Below are positions 1,443 to 62,706 of a stretch of 64,000 nt of DNA, piece by piece. Position 1 is the first letter of the stretch. The number at the start of each line of letters is the position of its first letter. A program made the position numbers and the translations under genes. The stretch is from a virus (lineage: Duplodnaviria; Caudoviricetes), in the IMG/VR virus record IMGVR_UViG_3300028832_000100; one strand, 5' to 3'. Below the pieces are notes generated by a model. That model saw only the letters and a list, made by a program, of their open reading frames with translations, was not told where the DNA came from and made no database searches.

Positions 1443-3272
1443 TTATTTCTTTCCAACAAGAACTCTTCCGTAGATTCTCTTTGCGTTTCCGTCCTTGTTT
1501 TCTTTTGCATTGTATTTATAAGTTAAACTTTCTGCAATAAATTTGCTTCCATCTACCTTACCAGTAAATGTAAATGCTCTCTTGCAGTTTGAAATACCTT
1601 TGTTTTCTCCGAGGATCTTAACCTTTCCTGTCTTTGTCTTGCATACTGACTCAAACATAAAGGAAGTATCTCTGTTCTTACCTGACTTAAATCCGATTAC
1701 ACCTTCAACGATGAGTTTTCCATCTTCAAGTTTGCAACTTTTTGACTTGAATGAATTTACATTCTCATAAACTCTCTTCAAATAACTTTCTCCAAGTTCA
1801 TCGATCTGTTCTTCATCAACCTCATCGATGTCATCAAGACTAATTTCATCAGACTTGATTTCCTCAATGGTTTCGTCAGAAGCAGGAACAATCATTTCGT
1901 CTTTTGACTCTCCTTCTTCTTTCTTCTCGGTTTCAATACGGATTTTTTCTTTGTCGGTTTCGACCTCTATTTTTTCAACAGATTCTTCAACCTTCTTATC
2001 TTTTTTAGAACATTTCTCTGACTTGCAACTTTCTTCAAGTGTGCCAATATAAGAGAACACTTCTTCCTTTTCCTCGTCTGTGTCATAAACACCGGCACAT
2101 TCTTTATCTACAAATTCAAGTGCAACATCTGCGCCAGAGCGACCGACCTTTTTCTTGAACTTTTCCCACTCATCTGCAATGGTGGCAAGTTCTCCGTAAG
2201 ACAGACCTTCTTTGATTTCTTTCTTCTCGTCATCTCTTTGAGCATCAGCATCGTCAATCGTTTTCTTCAATGCTTTCCTTGCTTTTTCAACACGGTTGTC
2301 GCGCTTTGCATCAATACGATCTGTTTTAGAAGTCTTATCTTCTTTTACTTTCTTAAATGTTTTCTTTACAGACTTTCCACAGGATTCTTCCATGCTCTGT
2401 GGGTAATCAGAAGCAATTTGATTTCTACTGTCTGCCTTAAACCCATGTTGCTTCAAAAACTCTTTTACATGACGGAGAGTGGTGGCAGACAAATCCCACT
2501 TCGGTAGAAGAGTAACTTCACCCTTTTCAATTATTGCAACTGGTGTATCATAAGAGTAAAGTGTTTCCTTATCCCCTTGAACATCTACCTGTGCTTTCCC
2601 ACCAAAAGACTTTCTGCTATCAAATTGAGTGTTGAGACCATAAATTGGAGATTCTTTAAGACCGTTTTTCTTTAACTGATAGTCTCTATCGGAATCAGCA
2701 TCATCTTTCTTACGCATGAATCTCGCTCTTGCTCTTTCTTTTTTGTTATCTGCAATAGCGTCGATATCGTCACGAGTTCTAGGAGTTACTTTTCTTCCCT
2801 CTTTGAGAGATTCTCCAAGACCTTCTTCATCGGTGAAGTCATCTTCTTTTTCGGAAACCTTGACTTTTTCCTCGTCGCCTTTTTCTCCCTCTTCTGTCTT
2901 GTTTTCAACTTCCAACTCAACATCAGAATAGGGTGCTACTTCACCAATAACTTCAAACCCACCAACATCATGGCAGTAAGGACATTCCACTGAAATATCA
3001 ACAAGGTCAGAATCTTCATCATAAGTAATCTTGTCCTTGTCTGCGTAGTGCATGGTATGGCAAATCGGGCAGTTGAGAATTACTTTTCCAACATAGGAAT
3101 CTTCAATATCCCCTTCGTCATCTGCTTCCATGTCAATGACTTCAACAGTTTCATCTGCAATGTCATCATCAAGAAAATCCTTTAACTTTTCTGTGCCTTC
3201 CTTTGAGAGTTCAAAAAGTTCTTCATCAAGGCAATCAAGTTTTTTGAAGGCTTCAGCTATATAATTAGCCAT
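1443..3272 (-). CDS. Acidic multidomain head-associated protein with Zn ribbon and many LxE sites
   Basis: CPIC/CPYC ribbon; LYSYDTPVA...SATTLRHVKEF module; internal repeat (IDAIADNKKERARA / IDAKRDNRVEKARK); ESLKE, LKES, MEES, IKEG, LEES, VEES motifs. Confidence 0.7.
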   Translation of the reverse strand: MANYIAEAFKKLDCLDEELFELSKEGTEKLKDFLDDDIADETVEVIDMEADDEGDIEDSYVGKVILNCPICHTMHYADKDKITYDEDSDLVDISVECPYCHDVGGFEVIGEVAPYSDVELEVENKTEEGEKGDEEKVKVSEKEDDFTDEEGLGESLKEGRKVTPRTRDDIDAIADNKKERARARFMRKKDDADSDRDYQLKKNGLKESPIYGLNTQFDSRKSFGGKAQVDVQGDKETLYSYDTPVAIIEKGEVTLLPKWDLSATTLRHVKEFLKQHGFKADSRNQIASDYPQSMEESCGKSVKKTFKKVKEDKTSKTDRIDAKRDNRVEKARKALKKTIDDADAQRDDEKKEIKEGLSYGELATIADEWEKFKKKVGRSGADVALEFVDKECAGVYDTDEEKEEVFSYIGTLEESCKSEKCSKKDKKVEESVEKIEVETDKEKIRIETEKKEEGESKDEMIVPASDETIEEIKSDEISLDDIDEVDEEQIDELGESYLKRVYENVNSFKSKSCKLEDGKLIVEGVIGFKSGKNRDTSFMFESVCKTKTGKVKILGENKGISNCKRAFTFTGKVDGSKFIAESLTYKYNAKENKDGNAKRIYGRVLVGKK

Positions 3273-4194: not shown

Positions 4195-7100
4195 TCAGCC
4201 AGCAGTAGCAGTGTATACAGGACTTGCGTTAGTACCATATACACGAGAAGCACCCTCAACCTTACCTGCAACAAGAAGCAGAGGATTGAGAACCTTCAGA
4301 TCGTACATTGTGGACCCAATTGTATTTATTATAAGTCGCTACCTTATAACGGGAATCTTCTTCCCCTCTTACTTTCATAAGAGTTTAGACTATATCTTCA
4401 TCCTTTTCAGGATGCACACCATTTCGGATTTGCTTAAATCCTACTCCCATATTTGGGATAGTCGTTGAACCTTCAGATCAAAGATCAGCTTGGCTGCTGA
4501 TTGCCCATTGCATCTTTCATTTAGGTTTGCGCCTTGTGAAAATCCATTCTATTGTTTCTACTTTCGTAACCATTTAGGTTAGAATGGCTTTAGGGGTTTC
4601 CAGCAATTAAATGTGTTATTTTTACTACACATTACTGTGTAGCAGACCTTTACGCTGACTTCTTATGCAGCGTATTCCAAGCCTTGAGTAGTTCCACCGT
4701 CGCTGTACTGCAACAGCTGAGTGGGAACAACTGGCATATCGTTTATGTTTTATGTGGATCACTACACCACATATTGCTTATTAGCAACTCTATATTTCTA
4801 TAGAGACCAGACTATATTATCATCTTTTCAGATGTGTAACCTTTCGGATTCGTTTGAACCCTACACCGCGCTACCGGTTAGTCGTTGAACCTTTTCCTAT
4901 TCGGAACTTGGCTGCTGATTGCCCAATCCAAATAATTTTCAAACATTCGCACTTATCCTTTCAGATTATGCTGTAGTTTATTTGGCTCTAAGGGTTTTCC
5001 AGCAATTAGTTACATTATCAATTGATTATTTCTAATCAATGCCACTATAGATTGGATTGTTTTTAAGCAACCAATTCTAATGGAGCGTACACAGCTGCAC
5101 TACTCATCATGTCCTCACCGTTAAGACCAAATGCAAACTTACCGGATGCAATGGAAGGAGATACAAAGATCTTGATTCCATTATAGGTCTGTTTTCTTTT
5201 CTATCAATCGTTACTTGATAGAGATAATTTCTTATCCTCTTACTTTCATAAGAGCAGAGACTATATCTTCACCCAACGCATTGGGTGCAACCCATTTCGA
5301 TACCACTTGATATCTACTCCAGATTTGGTCTGGATAGTCGTTGAACCTTTTCCTATTCGGAACTTGGCTGCTGATTACCTAATCATAGCAACTTCTTAAA
5401 ACTATCACAATTTGGCTTGTTTCATCCATTTGTTGTAGTGTACTACGCTCTAAAGGTTTTCCAGCAATTAGAGTTGTCTATTATTCTGCACATCTCTGTG
5501 CAGCCTGGCTATAAAGTTTAACCAGCAAGATATGGACCGTTTACACGGGAGATTCCTTCAGCGGGTTTGAATCCACTAAGGAAGGAAATAACACGAAGAA
5601 CATCAGGAGCGATCAGCATGTAGTTAGGACTGACTATTGTGTTTACTGAAAATCGCTACTTTTCAGCACGATAATATACATGCTTGATATTATCGTCACA
5701 TACTTTCATATGTGTACAGACTATATCTTCACCCTATTTAATAGGGGCAACTCACTTCGATTTCGCTTGAAATCTACTCCATAAAGGATAGTCGTTGGGG
5801 CTGTAACTACTTGAGTTCCCTGCCTGCTGATTTCCCAATCCTCTAACTTTTCAAACCTTCATATCTTCATCGCTGAAATACTGTGGTATAGAGGCTATAA
5901 GGGGTTTCCAGCATATCGAGTTGTTTATTTTTACGCTACATCACTGTAACGAGAAGCTATAAAATTTAACTTCTGAGTTCTGTTGTAAATAATGACACGA
6001 CCTGCTTCGATGATATCTGCAAATGACTCAAAGTGCTGAGCCATAGAAATACCAACAGGAACAGTGCGGTCAAAAGTAAGGGTGGCAAGTTCATCAACAG
6101 ATGTTGCTTCCTCTGCAGTCTTCACAAGAAGATTGACTACTTCAGTGTCAATTTCCAAATATGTTACGAATAAGTCAATTTCGCTTATTCTCTATAACTT
6201 ATGTATTTGTTATAGTTCAGACTATATCATGTACCTATATTGATTTATCCTTTATAGGTACCCATGCACTTCCACCTCTTTGAGGTGTACTCTACTCATT
6301 TATTCATCTGAATATTTCTTTCAGATTATACTTTCGATAGTCGTTGAGCGTTATTTATTTAGATGATACTATGTACCATCCTTGATTTATATAAGCATCA
6401 ATATTAAAATCTTGAATCATTCTGTATTTAGGAAATATCACATCGTGTGACATTTTTCTTCTTCCTAAATGTGAAAGCCTATCAAGAAGTTTCTGATTTT
6501 CTGACTGGGATTTTCCAAACATTCCATTATTTTCACCAGACGACAATGCACTGTGTAGCATCTTTAATTCATCTGACTGATGCCAACGATTTCCATAATT
6601 ACTGTTTTTAGAACCAATTCTTTCGGTTCTAAACTTTTTCTTCGTTTCATCAGAATGTTTGCGACCTTTGAACATCGGTCCTCCCGGTCCACAATCTCCA
6701 CCCTTACGTTTGTTGTATCCAACCAATGGGTTTCTTGAATCTAATTTATCAATCCAGAAGATTTCCTTCTGATTTAATTCATCTAAACTGTCTGCGGAAT
6801 CTATCATCTCAACAGACAATCTTTCTTCAAGTGGTATATTGTCTTGCAAGCATTTCTTTCTTATTCTTGAAATAAGAAGACCACTTCCAACGTACTTAAT
6901 ACCAACAAACTTGCTTGAGTGGTGTTTTCCAACGTAAATTTTTCCGTTAGATAGATCAGTTGTTTTATAAATATATCCAAACATTTTATACCTCCGAAGT
7001 ACAAAACATAATAAAAGTGCGGTAATCTGAAATTTCGGAGATTTCAGAATTGGTAGCTACTCCCTTGTCCCGCACAATATATGATACAATTTTATATTGT

Positions 7101-9190
7101 GCTTTATATCAAGTTTTCAATAAATCTTCGCTGCTGATTGCCATGCAGATGACACTAATCTGCAAGGTTTTCCAGCAATTCACATGGTTTTCACTAATAT
7201 ATTGCTATATTAGGCTACAAAAAGTTTATAGTTCAGTTCTGCAACAGCACGTTCTGCCAGCTGCTCTCCAAGATCAAAACCATAATCCTGCTTTGCCTGC
7301 CATGCAGCAATGTTTGAATAGTACACGGCAATTCTACGCGCTTTTGCAAGCAGAGGCATAGCCTTCATCTCAGCAGTGAGAATAGGAAGATCGTTCTGAG
7401 GAATGACAACATTATTATAGTTGTAATTGAATACAACATTACCAGTGATTCCGCTAGTAAGAGTGATAGCAGGAGTGCCAGTAGAGTAAATCTGTTCAAC
7501 ACCGTTGTAAGCAACACCCTTGGTAGCAGTATTACCATAAACGATAGTACCTGCTTCGGATGCGCCAGTAATGTTCTTCACAAAACGACCAGCGACACCT
7601 TCGAGATGTCCGTTGTTAGGATCAACTGCTTCGGTTACATAGTTAGTAACAACTGTAACAGCTGCTCCATCTGCATAACTGTAGATTTTACCGTTACCAT
7701 CATCAAGGTAGTTAGTGGTGCCAACCTTGAAGGAAACGGTGCCGGGGACTACAGGACCCCAGTTAAGAGCGATTGAGGTAGTAGAATCTGCAAAACTCTT
7801 GGATTCTTCAACCTTAGATGCTGTGAAATCGGTGTCAACCTTTCCACGAGCAAAAGGATTCTCAATCAGATCACCAACGCTTGTCTTACCTTTATTTGAG
7901 CCATATGAGTATTCAAGATAGTTTACCAATTGTGTTACGAATACTTCGCTTATAAAAGTATTCTCTGCATATTTCTATGCAGTTCGGACTATATTATCAG
8001 CCAAGATTGTTTTGTCCTCTCTTGGTTGCCAGCTCTTTCCATTCCACTTGGAATGTACTCTACTCACTTCTTCACAAGAATATTTCTTTCTTGCTATGCT
8101 TTCGATAGTCTCTGAACCTCCCACTATACAATGGTTTGGCTGCTGATTGTCCTTTCGGAGTTTCCAGCAATTTAACTGGTTTTTGTCATTCATGTTACCA
8201 TGAAAGGGTTACGTCATGCTACATAACCACTCATGCTCGACATCGGGTAAGTAATTACCAAATCACATTTATCTTGCGTGTAAATCGTTTCCACTTACAC
8301 TCTTATCATCACTGATAAGATGAGACTATATCATAGTCCAAACTTGATTTATCCTTATTTGGATTCCATGCACTTCGACTTCACTTGAAGCCTACTCTAC
8401 TCATTTATTCTCTATTGTTTTTCTCAATAGATATACTTTCGATAGTCGTTGAACCTTCCTGCCAAATTAGGCAGACTTGGTTGCTGATTGTCTTAATGGC
8501 TAATTTTTAAGACTTCCCAGCAATTCACATGGTTTTTTCTGCAAACATTACTATTTGCAGCCTCTGTTAAAAGGCAATAAGATTTGGTACGGTAATATTT
8601 ACCAAATTTAGTGCAAATTTCTTAACATTTTTATTGCAATATGCACAATTATGCATATTTCTTGATATTACTATCAAGATTAGACTATATCATCATCCAA
8701 TATTGCTTTTACCCTTTATTGGATGCCTCGCGCTTCGGAAACTTTTGCTCCTACTCTACTCATTTACTCATCATCATTTTTCTTGATAACTACATTTTCG
8801 ATAGTCGTTAAACCTTCCGTTCAAAGAACGGCTTGGATTTTTGTTGTCCTACTGATTGCACTATTTCAATAGGAGTTTCAAAAAGTTCACGAGGTTTTCT
8901 ACATAATATGAATTTAAGGGCTAACTTCTTAAATTGTTCTCATATCTGTAGGATCTCAATAAATATTACTATTTATTGCTCCTTTATATGGGAAAGAGTC
9001 CCATGTCGGAACGCTGGGTTCCAACGGAGTTCTCAAACTGCTCAGTGAGAAACTTGGAAGTGTTGTCAAGAAGTCTTGCAACAGCAATCTTCTTGGCTTC
9101 AGTAATGCGAGTACCGTTGTGTGCCTTCATGTGAACACGGTCGGCAACAGCAAGACGGTTCTTGTACTGTTCAAATAGTTTGTTAGCCAT
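4195..9190 (-). CDS. Major capsid protein (T4 gp23-like), split into 9 exons by 8 group I introns; spliced product 527 aa
   Basis: Exons (minus strand): 9190-8995, 8625-8571, 8265-8223, 7926-7228, 6155-5969, 5633-5521, 5188-5080, 4739-4680, 4316-4195 = 1584 nt. They join in one frame: MANKLFEQ...DMGLF|KKFALNLVNITVPNLIAF|DLVITYPMSSMSGY|VNYLEY...AKARR...ELNY|EIDTEVV...TQKF|SPNYML...GPYLAG|TYNGIKIFV...AVYAPY|MPVVP...TQGW|STMYD...ATAG*. gp23-like motifs (PNLIA, AKARR, EID-E, YAPY-P). Lies downstream of terminase-portal-protease. Confidence 0.93.
4317..4679 (-). ncRNA. Group I intron 8 of capsid gene (363 nt, no ORF)
   Basis: Exon ends in U, intron ends in G; P1 AGGCU/GGUCU; core AAUUGCUGGAAA, AAUCAGCAGCCAAG, GGUUCAACGACUA, GAUAUAGUCU. 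Confidence 0.88.
4740..5079 (-). ncRNA. Group I intron 7 of capsid gene (340 nt, no ORF)
   Basis: U|...G boundaries; P1 CCAU/GUGG; P,Q,R,S core motifs present. Confidence 0.88.
5189..5520 (-). ncRNA. Group I intron 6 of capsid gene (332 nt, no ORF)
   Basis: U|...G boundaries; P1 CUGGU/GCCAG; P,Q,R,S core motifs present. Confidence 0.88.
5634..5968 (-). ncRNA. Group I intron 5 of capsid gene (335 nt, no ORF)
   Basis: U|...G boundaries; P1 AGAAGU/GCUUCU; core AUGCUGGAAA, AAUCAGCAGG, CAACGACUA, GAUAUAGUCU. Confidence 0.88.
6156..7227 (-). ncRNA. Group I intron 4 of capsid gene (1072 nt), carries a homing endonuclease
   Basis: U|...G boundaries; P1 CUAU/GUAG; P/Q at ~7130-7180, R/S at ~6220-6350, with the ORF looped out between Q and R. 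Confidence 0.9.
6355..6984 (-). CDS. Intron-encoded GIY-YIG homing endonuclease with NUMOD3-like repeats
   Basis: GYIYKTT...KIYVG, E-x-FWI, GYN motifs; HSDETKKK and NGMFGK NUMOD3-like segments; GGAGG RBS. Confidence 0.9.
   Translation of the reverse strand: MFGYIYKTTDLSNGKIYVGKHHSSKFVGIKYVGSGLLISRIRKKCLQDNIPLEERLSVEMIDSADSLDELNQKEIFWIDKLDSRNPLVGYNKRKGGDCGPGGPMFKGRKHSDETKKKFRTERIGSKNSNYGNRWHQSDELKMLHSALSSGENNGMFGKSQSENQKLLDRLSHLGRRKMSHDVIFPKYRMIQDFNIDAYINQGWYIVSSK
7927..8222 (-). ncRNA. Group I intron 3 of capsid gene (296 nt, no ORF)
   Basis: U|...G boundaries; P1 GGUUAU/GUAACC; core AAUUGCUGGAAA, AAUCAGCAGCC, GGUUCAGAGACUA, AUAUAGUCC. Confidence 0.88.
8266..8570 (-). ncRNA. Group I intron 2 of capsid gene (305 nt, no ORF)
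   Basis: U|...G boundaries; P1 GCCUU/GAGGC; P,Q,R,S motifs present. Confidence 0.88.
8626..8994 (-). ncRNA. Group I intron 1 of capsid gene (369 nt, no ORF, variant P4)
   Basis: U|...G boundaries; P1 CUCU/GGAG; R (UUAACGACUA) and S (GAUAUAGUCU) present; P/Q diverged but still complementary (UUUUG/CAAAA). Confidence 0.82.
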
Positions 9191-9212: not shown

Positions 9213-10805
9213 TTATTGAATAAATTTTTGCACGAATGACTCATCAATCATGTCATCAGAAGAAATATTATTTGCTTCTCTTTCAATCATGCTGTCATTC
9301 GATTCGGAAATTCTCATCCTCTTTTGAGTTAATGAGAAGGGCAACTTGCTAACATTCAATGCGTGTTGCTCTACACTTTCACAAATTCTATCAATATCAT
9401 TGAAGGAATAATTTTGGGGTAACTGTCTCTTAATTTCAGAATCAGACACCCCTAAATGTAGTGCCTTCATACTGATGTACTTGTTTACGGCAGTCTTTGC
9501 TACACGCTTGTACTGTTCAACAAGTTGTGTTTGTTCGTTGATTTTTTTCTCGTACTTCTCTTGAAGTTGAGATAGGTTTTCTTGGTATTCTTTGTTCTTA
9601 ATGGAAGAATTCTTTTTCATATCAGAAATACTCTCCACAAGGGACTTCTTCTCTCTTTCAAAAGATTCCTTCAAAGAAATATTCTCTTTCCTTGCTTCAT
9701 TCAACCTGCAATGAAGTTCGTTTGAAGATTCTTTCTTTTCATCCAAACTTTCTTGAATACGCTTTGCGGAAGCTCTTTGCATGCGAATTTGACCTTCAAG
9801 ATCACGAGAACTGTTTTCCAATTTTCTAATCTCTTGGTCTTTTTCTTGCAAATCTTCTGTAAGTTTCTGAACCTCTGCTTTTAACTTTGATTCAGATTTT
9901 TTGGAATCACTCAATGTAACTACTGCACTCTTGTACCGACTAACTTCTTCTACAAGTTTGGTTTCTTTTGCATAGCAAACTGATAACTGCTCTTGGAGAG
10001 AAATTATCTGTTCCTTAAGTTTTTCGTTAGCACCCAATGCTTCCTGCAATTCCTTGACTGTTGTTGCCATGACATCATCACCTGCAACGACTTCTTCAGA
10101 ATCGTTTTCTTTATTACTGTCTTCCTCTATATTATCGACGTTTTCGGTGTCGTTAATATCAATATCCAATTCTTTTAGTTGCTCTTCCATAACCCTCTTA
10201 TCATCAGCACTTGCATGTTCCAACGATTCTTTAAGAGCTTGTTTGAGTGACTTCTTATTTGATAAAGACTCTGTTACATATTTCAGTCTTGCTTCTTTCA
10301 CTGCTGGAACAAGAACGGCATCCCAACACTCACACTCAAAAGTAGATGGCTCAACAGATTCAGATCCGTCCATCTCCTCATAAGTATCTCCTGTCCCTCT
10401 GCTTGAAACACCGATGTGGCTTCCATAATCACAAAGAGTTTTCAAAATTCTTCCACAAGGAGTGTCAAGAATATCAAAAACACCATGAATTTTTCCATCA
10501 CTACCCTTTTTAGGCATCTCTGCCATACAGATAGCAATCTTTTCCGGATCAACTTCGGTTCTTTCTGCTGGATGACCAAATTCACCTACAAAGACTTTTT
10601 CTCTGATTTTCTCTTCTGTAAGTGGATCACTGAAAAACTTTTCCCACAATTTCTCGCTATAAAAACGATTGTTTCTTGTGGGGTTTTTCATATCAGCAAT
10701 AACACCTACAAGTCTACCTAAAATTCCTCTGCTAGCCTGTTCTTCGGCTGACAGTTTATTGTATTCCATTTCTTTTACTGCATTGTAACTTTCTAACATC
10801 TGCAA
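9213..10805 (-). CDS. Prohead core protease (T4 gp21-like) fused to a long coiled-coil scaffold
   Basis: NPTRNNRFY, GEFGHP, GVSSRGTG, WDAVLVPA protease motifs, followed by ~330 aa of coiled coil rich in LxE sites. Confidence 0.88.
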   Translation of the reverse strand: MQMLESYNAVKEMEYNKLSAEEQASRGILGRLVGVIADMKNPTRNNRFYSEKLWEKFFSDPLTEEKIREKVFVGEFGHPAERTEVDPEKIAICMAEMPKKGSDGKIHGVFDILDTPCGRILKTLCDYGSHIGVSSRGTGDTYEEMDGSESVEPSTFECECWDAVLVPAVKEARLKYVTESLSNKKSLKQALKESLEHASADDKRVMEEQLKELDIDINDTENVDNIEEDSNKENDSEEVVAGDDVMATTVKELQEALGANEKLKEQIISLQEQLSVCYAKETKLVEEVSRYKSAVVTLSDSKKSESKLKAEVQKLTEDLQEKDQEIRKLENSSRDLEGQIRMQRASAKRIQESLDEKKESSNELHCRLNEARKENISLKESFEREKKSLVESISDMKKNSSIKNKEYQENLSQLQEKYEKKINEQTQLVEQYKRVAKTAVNKYISMKALHLGVSDSEIKRQLPQNYSFNDIDRICESVEQHALNVSKLPFSLTQKRMRISESNDSMIEREANNISSDDMIDESFVQKFIQ

Positions 10806-10884
10806 TACTCCTGTACCGTTTTTTAGTCGAACCGACTATTTTAGAATTTTTTTGTCAGACAAAAATCTGAACAGTGTCTATATA

Positions 10885-10895
10885 ATAATTTAGCA
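10885..10895 (-). promoter_or_regulatory. Candidate phage late promoter motif TGCTAAATTAT
   Basis: Recurs upstream of genes at 4143-4152, 10885-10895, 40639-40650, 54744-54754 (minus) and 60676-60686 (plus). Confidence 0.5.
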
Positions 10896-10929
10896 GAAAA
10901 TTTTTTCGCAAATTCTTATATTTTTCTGA

Positions 10930-11250
10930 AATATGAACAAAATATGAATGAAATTTTCAAAATGTTAAAAAATCGCTTTAATAACTAGATACTATCTATA
11001 TATACAATTATTTTTACTAGATATTATATAATATATATTATAATATATTTATTATTTACTAGTATATGCGTACACAAGAAATTTGTGAACAAATTGTGAA
11101 CAAATTATTAAAAATCTATGAATAGTGAACATTCTATTACAAATTTGTGAATAAATTATTAACAGTCCGTTATGAACAGATTTCTAAATTGTGAACAAAT
11201 TATGAATAATATATGAAAAATTTATGAATCATGAACAAATTGTGAACAAA
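10930..11250. repeat. Array of (T/A)(G/A)TGAA(C/T)AA repeats, often 11 bp apart, flanking an AT-rich tract
   Basis: TGTGAACAA at ~11085, 11096, 11190, 11241; TGTGAATAA at ~11146; several TATGAA variants; AT-rich tract ~10975-11065. Confidence 0.7.
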
Positions 11251-11251
11251 A

Positions 11252-11782
11252 TTAAACTCTGTATATACTCTCGATTGCTTTTAGATCCGCTTTTATAAGG
11301 TTAAGCAATCGTACACAATTCGTAAGGTCATAGTTTTTGAAATAAAGACTTAACACCATACTGATCTCATCTGCTCTTGCATGTCTTAAAAACATTTGTC
11401 TGTTGGATGCCTTCTTACTGAAAAGAAGTATCTGTAAGAGCATTGAAGAAAGTGTTGTTAATATTTCTTCTGGTGATGAATCTTCCTTTACAATATTTCC
11501 ATAAAGTTTTGATTTTTTACTGTTATAACTTTTTCTTATCTTTTTATAAAATTCAGTTACATCTAACTGTCTGTTGTCATTTATAAATTTCAGACAACTC
11601 AAATCAACATCTCTGCTAACAACGGCTCTTGACAGAACTTCTTTTGTGTCAATTCCTTTATCAGCAAGATCTTTAAGCAACAATAAACAATCTGACTTTG
11701 TAATCATATCTATATTTCTCCATTTCGCATTGCAAACTTGGTTTTTCATTTTAATAACTACCACAGACAGCAAATTTGCCAC
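11252..11782 (-). CDS. Hypothetical protein between portal and protease (start probably ~11707, MITKSD)
   Basis: Open frame in the head module. Confidence 0.6.
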   Translation of the reverse strand: MANLLSVVVIKMKNQVCNAKWRNIDMITKSDCLLLLKDLADKGIDTKEVLSRAVVSRDVDLSCLKFINDNRQLDVTEFYKKIRKSYNSKKSKLYGNIVKEDSSPEEILTTLSSMLLQILLFSKKASNRQMFLRHARADEISMVLSLYFKNYDLTNCVRLLNLIKADLKAIESIYRV

Positions 11783-56119: not shown

Positions 56120-56194
56120 TGGAGCGAGTAGAGGGAATCGAACCCTCATCCGAGGTTTGGAAAACCCCTATAATAGCCATTATACGATACCCGC
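56120..56194 (-). tRNA. tRNA-Gly(TCC)
   Basis: Cloverleaf, encoded CCA. Confidence 0.9.
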
Positions 56195-56354
56195 GAGTAA
56201 GAGGTTTTTACATTGCCATCCCATGATTCAGAATGATTATCATCATACCTATTAAAGCTCTTACGGCTTATACAATGTCTGACGTAGGTAAAACCAGAAA
56301 AATCCTCGATTTCAAGCTACAATTTACTCCACAGCCCGTTCCGTGGACGAACGA

Positions 56355-56429
56355 TGGTTCCCCACAGAGGAGTCGGACCTCCGTCACAAGAGCCACAATC
56401 TTGGGTTCTACCGTTGAACTAGTGAGGGA
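56355..56429 (-). tRNA. tRNA-His(GTG), atypical acceptor end
   Basis: CAAGA-TTGTGGC-TCTTG anticodon arm; CCA; lacks G-1/C73. Confidence 0.75.
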
Positions 56430-56600
56430 ATATTGAAAGCTGTTTGGTCGCCTTACTACGGATTGGTACCTACCCGTTTTCACCTCTGATTATAACTTAA
56501 CCAGAACTCCCTTTACTTCTCGTTTCTAGGTTGAGATACGCATTCCTCTTTCTCTATACCGATTTCAGGCTTTAATGTCGTGGGAATGTTCTGCGAAAGC

Positions 56601-56676
56601 TGGTGTGCTCTCGGGGAGTCGAACCCCGGACACACGGATTAAAAATCCGCTGCTCTACCATCTGAGCTAATGGCAC
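56601..56676 (-). tRNA. tRNA-Lys(TTT)
   Basis: Cloverleaf, CCA; two acceptor-stem mismatches. Confidence 0.85.
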
Positions 56677-56683
56677 AAGGGAT

Positions 56684-56758
56684 TGGCACGGCGTACAGGA
56701 CTCGAACCCGTATTAGTAGGTCCGTAGCCTACTGTCCTCTCCGTTAGACGAACTCCGC
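56684..56758 (-). tRNA. tRNA-Arg(ACG)
   Basis: Cloverleaf, CCA. Confidence 0.88.
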
Positions 56759-56760
56759 AT

Positions 56761-56837
56761 TGGTGCTCGGTGTTGGTGTCGGACCAACATCCTCAGGTTT
56801 TTCAGACCTGCGCTCAGACCGCTTAAGCTAACCGAGC
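56761..56837 (-). tRNA. tRNA-Phe(GAA)
   Basis: Cloverleaf, CCA; T-loop TCCGACA variant. Confidence 0.85.
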
Positions 56838-56840
56838 AAG

Positions 56841-56914
56841 TGGCGGGGAATAAGAGAATTGAACTCCTGTAGCGAGGTTAACAGCCCCGTGCTAAACCAC
56901 TTAGCGAATTCCCC
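56841..56914 (-). tRNA. tRNA-Asn(GTT)
   Basis: Cloverleaf, CCA. Confidence 0.88.
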
Positions 56915-56998
56915 AACTAGCGCTTTTTCCTGCCGCGCTTCGCAGGCATTATTGGATAGTAGCGTTACACACTGACCATATCTTCAATAGAAGATGAA

Positions 56999-57086
56999 TG
57001 GCGGGGGATGAGGGACTCGAACCCCCACATCCGTTAGGATGAACGGTTTTCAGGACCGCTGCAGTACCAATTATGCTTAATCCCCC
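56999..57086 (-). tRNA. tRNA-Ser(TGA)
   Basis: Long variable arm, G73, CCA. Confidence 0.88.
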
Positions 57087-57089
57087 GTA

Positions 57090-57166
57090 TGGCGATCCGG
57101 ATGGGGGTCGAACCCACGACCTCTAGCGTGACAGGCTAGCGCTCTAACCAACTGAGCTACCGGACC
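57090..57166 (-). tRNA. tRNA-Asp(GTC)
   Basis: Canonical cloverleaf, CCA. Confidence 0.93.
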
Positions 57167-57170
57167 ATTA

Positions 57171-57246
57171 TGGTGGGGGCAATAGGACTTGAACCTATAG
57201 CCTTCTGTTTGTAGGACAGATGCTCTCCCAGCTGAGCTATACCCCC
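57171..57246 (-). tRNA. tRNA-Val(TAC)
   Basis: Cloverleaf, CCA. Confidence 0.9.
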
Positions 57247-57252
57247 CTTATA

Positions 57253-57329
57253 TGGCACGCCATGAGGGACTCAAACCCCCGGTCTGGTGCTTAGAAGGCA
57301 CCTGCATTATTCATCTATGCTAATGGCGC
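57253..57329 (-). tRNA. tRNA-Arg(TCT)
   Basis: Cloverleaf, CCA. Confidence 0.88.
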
Positions 57330-57333
57330 AAAT

Positions 57334-57410
57334 TGGTGTTCTCGGGTGGAATCGAACCACCACTCTCACGATTATCAGTCGCGAATTTTAGCCGATTAAA
57401 CTACGAGAAC
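57334..57410 (-). tRNA. tRNA-Ile(GAT)
   Basis: Cloverleaf, CCA. Confidence 0.88.
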
Positions 57411-57654
57411 ATCTGTATAGTGATTCATATAGATTAGTGGATCTGACCGTCTTTTTCCGGGATAGAAATAACCTCTGGTAAAAGTAAATCATATACACAA
57501 AAAGTCCCATTCCAATAGGGACAGTTGGTATTCGGTGCTTTACAAAACCTACATTCTAACATATTATGTCTCTCTTATCATATATACAATTAGATTACAT
57601 ACTTTTTTGTCAACAAAGATCATATTCATCTTACATTACTTTATGCAGATAATT

Positions 57655-57731
57655 TGGTGCCCCGTCGAGGTCTCGAACCTCGGACCTTCCGGTTATGAGC
57701 CGGTGGCTCTGACCAACTGAGCTAACGGGGC
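57655..57731 (-). tRNA. tRNA with CAT anticodon (elongator Met or Ile2)
   Basis: Cloverleaf, CCA; G1-C72 paired so not an initiator. Confidence 0.9.
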
Positions 57732-62462: not shown

Positions 62463-62537
62463 TGGTCGGAGTGGAGAGAGTTGAACTCCCGACTTCGTGA
62501 TCCCAAATCACGCGCCATACCGCTTGGCTACACCCCG
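62463..62537 (-). tRNA. tRNA-Pro(TGG)
   Basis: Cloverleaf, CCA. Confidence 0.9.
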
Positions 62538-62548
62538 ATTGTATGTGT

Positions 62549-62623
62549 TGGCAGGGGCGCAGGGACTTGAACCCCAATAAGTGGTTTTGGAGACCACCGT
62601 CCTACCATTGTAACGACACCCCT
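62549..62623 (-). tRNA. tRNA-Trp(CCA)
   Basis: Cloverleaf, CCA. Confidence 0.9.
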
Positions 62624-62629
62624 GTATTG

Positions 62630-62706
62630 TGGCTGGGGAGGTTGGAGTCGAACCAACGAAGTGATGCGGTCAAAGCGCATTGCCTTAACCTCTTGGCTAC
62701 TCCCCA
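62630..62706 (-). tRNA. tRNA-Gln(TTG)
   Basis: Cloverleaf, U1-A72, CCA. Confidence 0.9.

Follow-up and report, generated by a model that had tools for sequence, protein, structure and literature searches.

A major capsid gene interrupted by eight group I introns in a cattle-gut phage

Introduction

In fungal mitochondria, cox1 is a single conserved gene that serves as a sink for many homing group I introns, which are inserted at distinct conserved sites. Presence or absence of these introns varies between strains, and many of the introns depend on maturases. Here we describe a phage gene, identified as the major capsid gene, that is interrupted by eight group I introns. It is encoded in a cattle-gut phage whose source genome is a contig of ~146 kb. 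The stretch analysed, referred to as the window, is the whole of the 64,000 nucleotides presented from IMG/VR virus record IMGVR_UViG_3300028832_000100 (Caudoviricetes).

The closest described systems are found in other phages. Genomes of crAss-like Zeta phages carry up to 14 introns, and in one of them (cMAG OLRF01000054) the capsid gene occurs in five fragments (Yutin et al., 2021; PMC7886860). The Jug (jumbo gut) phages have a mean of 18.5 group I introns per genome, located in essential genes, and metatranscriptome reads confirmed splicing for 37 of 76 predicted introns (PMC12880540). Up to three introns per gene are known in Bastillevirinae (PMC11878797). Three introns also interrupt orf142 of Staphylococcus phage Twort, for which the title of the report indicates that splicing and exon skipping were shown experimentally (Landthaler & Shub, 1999, cited in PMC11878797). 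A preliminary description of the window assumed that phage introns are few per gene and reside mostly in genes of DNA metabolism, a view that is dated given the multi-intron capsid genes (PMC7886860) and intron-dense gut phages (PMC12880540) now reported. Our literature search for an eight-intron phage gene and for introns of rumen phages returned nothing nearer than the crAss-like, Jug, Twort and Bastillevirinae cases.

Results

Gene layout

The capsid gene lies on the minus strand at 9190-4195 (all coordinates are in window numbering) and consists of nine exons separated by eight introns. The spliced gene is 1584 nt in length (527 codons and a stop), and introns account for 3412 of the 4996 nt. 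A single arrangement combines the exon lengths first proposed, a U at each exon end and a G at each intron end, zero internal stops and homology to a relative. The nine exon sizes, the in-frame product of 527 aa plus stop and the intron share given in the preliminary description were all reproduced. Its end coordinates were exact, and the strand, which it left unstated, is minus. The start codon of exon 1 is an ATG at 9190, with AAGGA ~13 nt upstream. In the list below, introns are abbreviated I1 to I8, ORF denotes an open reading frame, L001 is an IMG/VR contig from another sample, and bit scores refer to the Rfam covariance model for group I introns (RF00028, gathering score 50 bits).

Exon 1: 8995..9190, minus strand, 196 nt, codons 1-65 plus 1 nt; 93% identical to L001 exon A
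I1: 8626..8994, minus strand, 369 nt, phase 1, ORF-less; 63.3 bits at 8941-8661
Exon 2: 8571..8625, minus strand, 55 nt
I2: 8266..8570, minus strand, 305 nt, phase 2, ORF-less; 83 bits at 8581-8302
Exon 3: 8223..8265, minus strand, 43 nt
I3: 7927..8222, minus strand, 296 nt, phase 0, ORF-less; 74.7 bits at 8234-7965
Exon 4: 7228..7926, minus strand, 699 nt, codons 99-331; 82% identical to L001
I4: 6156..7227, minus strand, 1072 nt, phase 0; a predicted endonuclease ORF divides the ribozyme
I4 ORF: 6355..6984, minus strand, 209 aa, predicted homing endonuclease
Exon 5: 5969..6155, minus strand, 187 nt
I5: 5634..5968, minus strand, 335 nt, phase 1, ORF-less; 55.7 bits at 5978-5697
Exon 6: 5521..5633, minus strand, 113 nt
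I6: 5189..5520, minus strand, 332 nt, phase 0, ORF-less; 85.8 bits at 5530-5237
Exon 7: 5080..5188, minus strand, 109 nt
I7: 4740..5079, minus strand, 340 nt, phase 1, ORF-less; 78.9 bits at 5063-4788
Exon 8: 4680..4739, minus strand, 60 nt
I8: 4317..4679, minus strand, 363 nt, phase 1, ORF-less; 87.5 bits at 4677-4366
Exon 9: 4195..4316, minus strand, 122 nt including the stop codon

Ribozyme cores and splice sites

Seven of the eight introns match RF00028 above threshold (55.7-87.5 bits, E 1e-11 to 6e-21), and no further matches above threshold were found in the 64 kb outside the capsid gene. The two halves of I4 match below the gathering score: the 5' half weakly at 7237-7060 (21.2 bits), and the 3' half, when scanned alone, over model positions 124-253 (14.3 bits). 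The 3' core of I4 is also 78% identical to the I2 core over 133 nt (E 1e-22). The covariance model agrees with the original assignment to group I for seven of the introns, and the partial matches of I4 make it a probable eighth. RF00028 matches end at the P9 hairpin, and the introns continue for tens of bases to the terminal G (49 in the case of I8).

Core motifs AAUUGCNGGAAA, GCAGCCAA, GUUCAACGACUA and AAGAUAUAGUC were identified in most introns when up to two substitutions were allowed, and the model alignments display the usual core strands AAUUGCUGGAAA, GCAGCCAA, GUUCAACGACUA and AAGAUAUAGUC. Pairwise identity among the window introns is 66-79%, with no pair above ~79%; the most divergent are I1 and I5. 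Inserts of 35-70 nt follow GACUA in I1, I2, I3, I5, I6 and I8, as placed by RF00028, which is a general and not a subgroup-specific model. These inserts sit where subgroup IA introns carry P7.1/P7.2, and the eight introns look like members of this subgroup.

All eight junctions have an exon-terminal U and an intron-terminal G. A P1 helix of 6-8 bp can form at every intron, with a U.G pair between the exon-terminal U and a G of the guide, which lies 7-35 nt into the intron. The pairings are as follows (the slash marks the 5' splice site):

I1 P1: CUCU/UU paired with AAGGAG
I2 P1: GCCUU/U paired with AGAGGC
I3 P1: GGUUAU/GU paired with ACGUAACC
I4 P1: CUAU/AAA paired with UUUGUAG
I5 P1: AGAAGU/UA paired with UAGCUUCU
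I6 P1: CUGGU/UA paired with UAGCCAG
I7 P1: CCAU/UA paired with UAGUGG
I8 P1: AGGCU/U paired with AGGUCU

Exon-side pairing with the guide has a mean of 4.88 for the intron's own exon versus 2.96 for mismatched exon-intron pairs, and the observed mean was reached by 4 of 20,000 permutations. The guides are specific to their own exons, and the junction anatomy reported initially stands at all eight sites. In each intron, an in-frame stop occurs 1-36 nt past the 5' splice site.

Expression of this gene would require the late transcript to go through eight ribozyme-catalysed splicing events. In each, the guide would pair with the last 4-6 exon bases, and the U.G pair would mark the cut. Exogenous guanosine would attack at this position, after which the freed exon end would attack after the intron-terminal G. 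Ribosomes running into an intron would be released at the in-frame stops, and the ligated exons would be translated to the 527-aa protein.

Might these steps serve regulation? Eight GTP-dependent splicing reactions could gate or delay capsid synthesis, or exon skipping could give rise to isoforms, as the preliminary description suggested. Exons 4 and 8 can be skipped in frame, but both encode strongly conserved capsid segments, and skipping of exon 2, 3, 5, 6 or 7 shifts the frame. Furthermore, the same protein is made by relatives, both close and distant, whose genes have 0-2 introns at other sites (see below), thus the introns appear to be dispensable for regulation. The proposal of a timing checkpoint or of exon skipping is unsupported by these comparisons, and we consider a regulatory role very improbable.

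Relatives and independent assemblies

The capsid protein of L001 is 85.6% identical to the spliced product of the window. The L001 gene is uninterrupted across all eight window junctions. Its own two introns follow codons 71 and 91, and the window is uninterrupted at both of these sites. Because each gene is contiguous at the intron sites of the other, the two validate each other's splice junctions. Comparison of the spliced genes over 527 codons yields a dN/dS of 0.09 (dS 1.3), which indicates strong purifying selection on the interrupted gene. Homologues without introns (P0003, P0004, P0005, P0007, P0008 and P0015; 517-529 aa) align gaplessly at every junction, and in this alignment every intron position falls within a highly conserved peptide block. 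The spliced product first proposed is colinear with L001 and with the intron-free homologues alike.

The window derives from a metagenome, and samples of this kind contain repeated, very abundant intron cores. A non-working gene was considered, either a chimera of repeated intron cores generated during assembly or a decaying pseudogene of a defective phage. Different intron copies are in fact joined in some contigs; these contigs were placed at 80% likeness, and we take the joints to be cross-matches of an abundant intron family and not rearrangements. However, two runs from the source sample contain 99% and 94% of the sampled words, and contigs of three other cattle-gut studies span the exon-intron-exon boundaries of I2, I3, I5, I6, I7 and I8, as well as the 3' boundary of I4. 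The introns, at 66-79% identity, are also too diverged to collapse in assembly, and the nine exons are intact and in frame. We rejected an assembly chimera on the basis of the boundary-spanning contigs from the other studies and a pseudogene on the basis of the low dN/dS, and consider it extremely improbable that the gene does not work.

In one bovine-gut contig (record 9, run X4), window positions 7591 and 5185 are separated by exactly 666 nt. A precise absence of introns 4, 5 and 6 would give this distance, thus we infer that a natural intron-free allele exists at I4-I6. The same contig retains intron-7-like sequence.

Protein identity

The protein family was assigned using proxies for the window protein. 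The Pfam Gp23 family (PF07068, cut-off 24.4) is matched by P0003, a 66%-identical homologue (89.1 bits), and by the L001 ORF (72.1 bits), and in phmmer searches P0003 finds T4 gp23 chains at E 3e-5. An AlphaFold2 model of P0003 (pLDDT 78.5) has structural matches to the head of phage P1 (E 1e-18), Staphylococcus phage S6, T4 gp23 (E 2e-13), T4 gp24 and HK97. Through this homologue, the capsid family is predicted to have the HK97 fold and to be T4/P1-like, in line with the gp23/HK97 identification made at the outset. A search with exon 4 matches capsid genes in Bacillus phage vB_BceM-HSE3 and Listeria phage LIS04, and exon 4 alone has zero Pfam or PHROG matches.

The public protein collection contains only a 239-aa ORF corresponding to exon 4 (P0121), which is without a Pfam domain. 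Gene callers recover only fragments of the gene, in line with what had been anticipated. As ORF-based annotation does not see this protein, the most abundant structural protein of the phage, efforts that use the capsid for phage detection, classification or proteomics would miss or mis-size such phages.

The predicted intron-4 endonuclease

The ORF in I4 matches PHROG 314 (homing endonuclease, E 1e-22) and NUMOD3 (23.4 bits). For the GIY-YIG domain, the only profile match is to SegE_GIY-YIG, at 12.9 bits and below the cut-off of 25. However, the motif GYIY-x10-YVG is present at residues 3-19, and the ORF is 43% identical (E 9e-43) to an ORF of the relative L084 that carries GIY-YIG (PF01541) and NUMOD3. 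The L084 ORF is located in an interrupted region at codons 309-332, between the exons for 310-332 and 332-431. The I4 product is thus predicted to be a homing endonuclease of the GIY-YIG/NUMOD3 kind.

Intron distribution and history

The capsid gene is uninterrupted in 71 of 79 distinct IMG/VR relatives. The gene is interrupted once or twice in the other eight, always between codons 63 and 98. A scan of Joint Genome Institute (JGI) metagenomes for relatives recovered only the L001 phage again (L082, L083). More heavily split genes were traced via fragment-sized ORFs in a large protein collection: there are four Rfam introns in L084, in addition to the interruption at codons 309-332, and five in L086, and L085 and L087 each show one to three interruptions. 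When Rfam matches and endonuclease-bearing interruptions are counted, intron load across the family is 0, 1, 2, 5-6 or 8, and there are ~14 distinct insertion sites. Window sites that are also interrupted elsewhere are those of I1 (L072), I3 (L068), I4 (L084, L085) and I6 (L084), although the capsid proteins of phages with shared sites are only ~45-50% identical. The L068 interruption at the I3 position has zero Rfam match there.

In a tree built from intron cores, I1-I4 cluster with relatives' N-terminal introns, and I5-I8 belong to a clade (support 0.996) that also contains introns of L084 and L086. Within this clade, the partner of I7 is an L084 intron (75% identity) and that of I5 is an L086 intron, so that both are closer to introns of other phages than to their neighbours in the window. 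Given that no window pair exceeds ~79% identity, we infer that the load represents old, horizontally spread acquisitions and did not arise in a recent local burst. That introns do spread to new sites within a gene is shown by the two L001 introns (L001 positions 4384-4660 and 5706-5980), which are inserted 20 codons apart and are 92.8% identical over 276 nt. This suggests that one of them jumped recently to a new site in the same gene.

Within I1, at 8947-8911 on the minus strand, we identified a degenerate copy (~36 nt) of the ligated exon 1-exon 2 junction, with a z of 5.1 relative to shuffles. A shifted splice site or co-conversion could have left this footprint. An apparent junction copy in I5 overlaps the conserved ribozyme core and was taken as chance.

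Other features of the split genes were noted in the relatives. In L084 (6061-6519) and L086 (8619-9373), a group I intron (Rfam 57-66 bits) is located at or just after the capsid stop codon, and beyond it the C-terminal capsid exon occurs again, ending in a stop of its own. The arrangement resembles an intron together with a terminal exon that is either duplicated or alternative. Capsid fragments of L085 (65-kb contig) and L086 (235-kb contig) match database proteins only with TAG read as Q, which suggests that a stop codon is recoded in these phages.

In cattle-gut runs X3 and X4, summed contig depth is 70-200 over intron cores (4362-4528, 4863-5029, 5698-5864, 8036-8202 and 8370-8536) compared to ~5-20 over exons, a difference of 10-40x. 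The intron family is far more abundant in these communities than the window phage.

The introns probably entered as selfish mobile elements, by endonuclease-driven homing into conserved capsid sites during co-infection by related phages. Seven would have lost the endonuclease gene later, and I4 would have retained one. Sufficiently efficient splicing and the rarity of precise loss may account for their persistence.

Alternatively, the introns could be adaptive. Each would destroy the recognition site of a competitor's homing endonuclease, so that a filled gene is immune, and the I4 endonuclease would cut intron-free alleles in a form of interference competition. Related phages with differing intron sets do co-occur in cattle-gut samples, where intron cores reach the depths given above, and insertion sites are common to distant relatives. 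There is also precedent in PhiPA3 gp210, an intron endonuclease that harms a competing phage (PMC11620839), and the idea of a 'weapon' has been discussed for Bastillevirinae (PMC11878797). Sequence does not, however, separate immunity from neutral persistence after homing. In addition, seven of the eight introns are without an endonuclease, and the capsid gene is free of introns in most IMG/VR relatives. We regard an adaptive benefit as possible but rather unlikely. It is likewise unlikely that the intron load is the product of an arms race inside the capsid gene, with ORF-less introns filling all targets in a community whose related phages bear differing capsid-targeting homing endonucleases, and the I4 endonuclease acting as an offensive weapon against relatives without introns.

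Neighbouring genes

The capsid gene adjoins a prohead protease gene, located 22 nt upstream. In relatives, the gene order is Portal_T4, S77 protease, capsid and gp13.

Prohead protease (Peptidase_S77) with a coiled-coil, scaffold-like tail: 9213..10805, minus strand; Pfam PF03420, 48 bits; PHROG 207, head maturation protease

Just upstream of the protease gene, at 10800-11400, GC content drops to 0.22-0.24 from ~0.36 elsewhere. Downstream of the head genes, a very acidic protein of 609 aa is encoded on the minus strand at 1443-3272; a stretch of 84 residues matches phrog_4264 (unknown function, E 2e-20), and the protein has zero Pfam matches. Two tRNA arrays, at 56123-57731 and 62466-62706 on the minus strand, hold 15 tRNA genes in total.

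Discussion

The eight-intron, nine-exon organization of the gene is confirmed. Very probably, this is a functional major capsid gene of the T4 gp23 type (HK97 fold) in which group I introns of selfish homing origin have accumulated.

Several points weigh against this interpretation. The family and fold of the spliced product rest on P0003 and L001. The I4 ribozyme scored as two separate halves and not as one unit, and the score of I5 is barely over the Rfam cut-off. The preliminary description placed core motifs at every junction; this holds for most introns, but even with two substitutions allowed I1 is without the first motif and I5 without the third. No second gp23-family gene was found in the window, a search that covered 64 kb of the ~146-kb genome, and an intact copy elsewhere is possible. 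None of the listed public runs that contain the stretch is an RNA run, so splicing is deduced from DNA, and its efficiency and its independence from protein helpers are presumed. The history of selfish accumulation is likewise read from intron distribution and not from observed homing.

Eight obligatory ribozyme reactions in the most heavily expressed late gene, with exons down to 43 nt, represent a demanding test of the efficiency and order that group I splicing can attain in a bacterial cell. The capsid family also provides a natural series in which to study homing, the loss of endonucleases and the movement of introns to new sites.

Comparison with known systems

Like cox1, the window gene holds many group I introns, but cox1 is an organelle gene, whereas the gene described here belongs to a lytic-type phage and needs massive expression within one infection cycle. 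The introns of T4 td, nrdB and nrdD, of SPO1 and of Bastillevirinae polymerase genes are of the same ribozyme class and likewise have a long insert at the place expected for P7.1/P7.2, as is typical of subgroup IA (PMC2988022, PMC11878797). They also share a peripheral-loop endonuclease ORF, insertion at conserved codons and in-frame stops just inside the intron (PMC2988022, PMC11878797). However, there are one to three of them per gene, in DNA-metabolism or terminase genes, whereas the window has eight in a structural late gene with exons of 43-60 nt between them.

Twort orf142, as cited in PMC11878797, is similar in having several ORF-less group I introns in one phage gene. It has three introns and a demonstration at the RNA level, whereas the eight described here are predicted from DNA. 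Jug phages have 2-3 fragments per gene (terL) and Bacteroides or Phocaeicola hosts, and their capsid gene is not described as intron-rich (PMC12880540).

The crAss-like Zeta phages are intron-dense gut phages in which, as in the window, the capsid gene is split by group I introns and gene callers are defeated. There, the gene is in five fragments, and three of the four intervening segments have intron protein domains, compared to nine exons and eight introns in the window. The introns of the Zeta phages were found via these protein domains, whereas seven of the eight window introns are without an ORF. The Zeta phages are Crassvirales and have no gp23-type capsid, unlike the window phage, whose capsid is predicted to be of that type. 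Eight introns in one gene exceeds the published counts that we found (three in Twort and Bastillevirinae, and five fragments in the crAss-like case), but the principle is already established by these systems.

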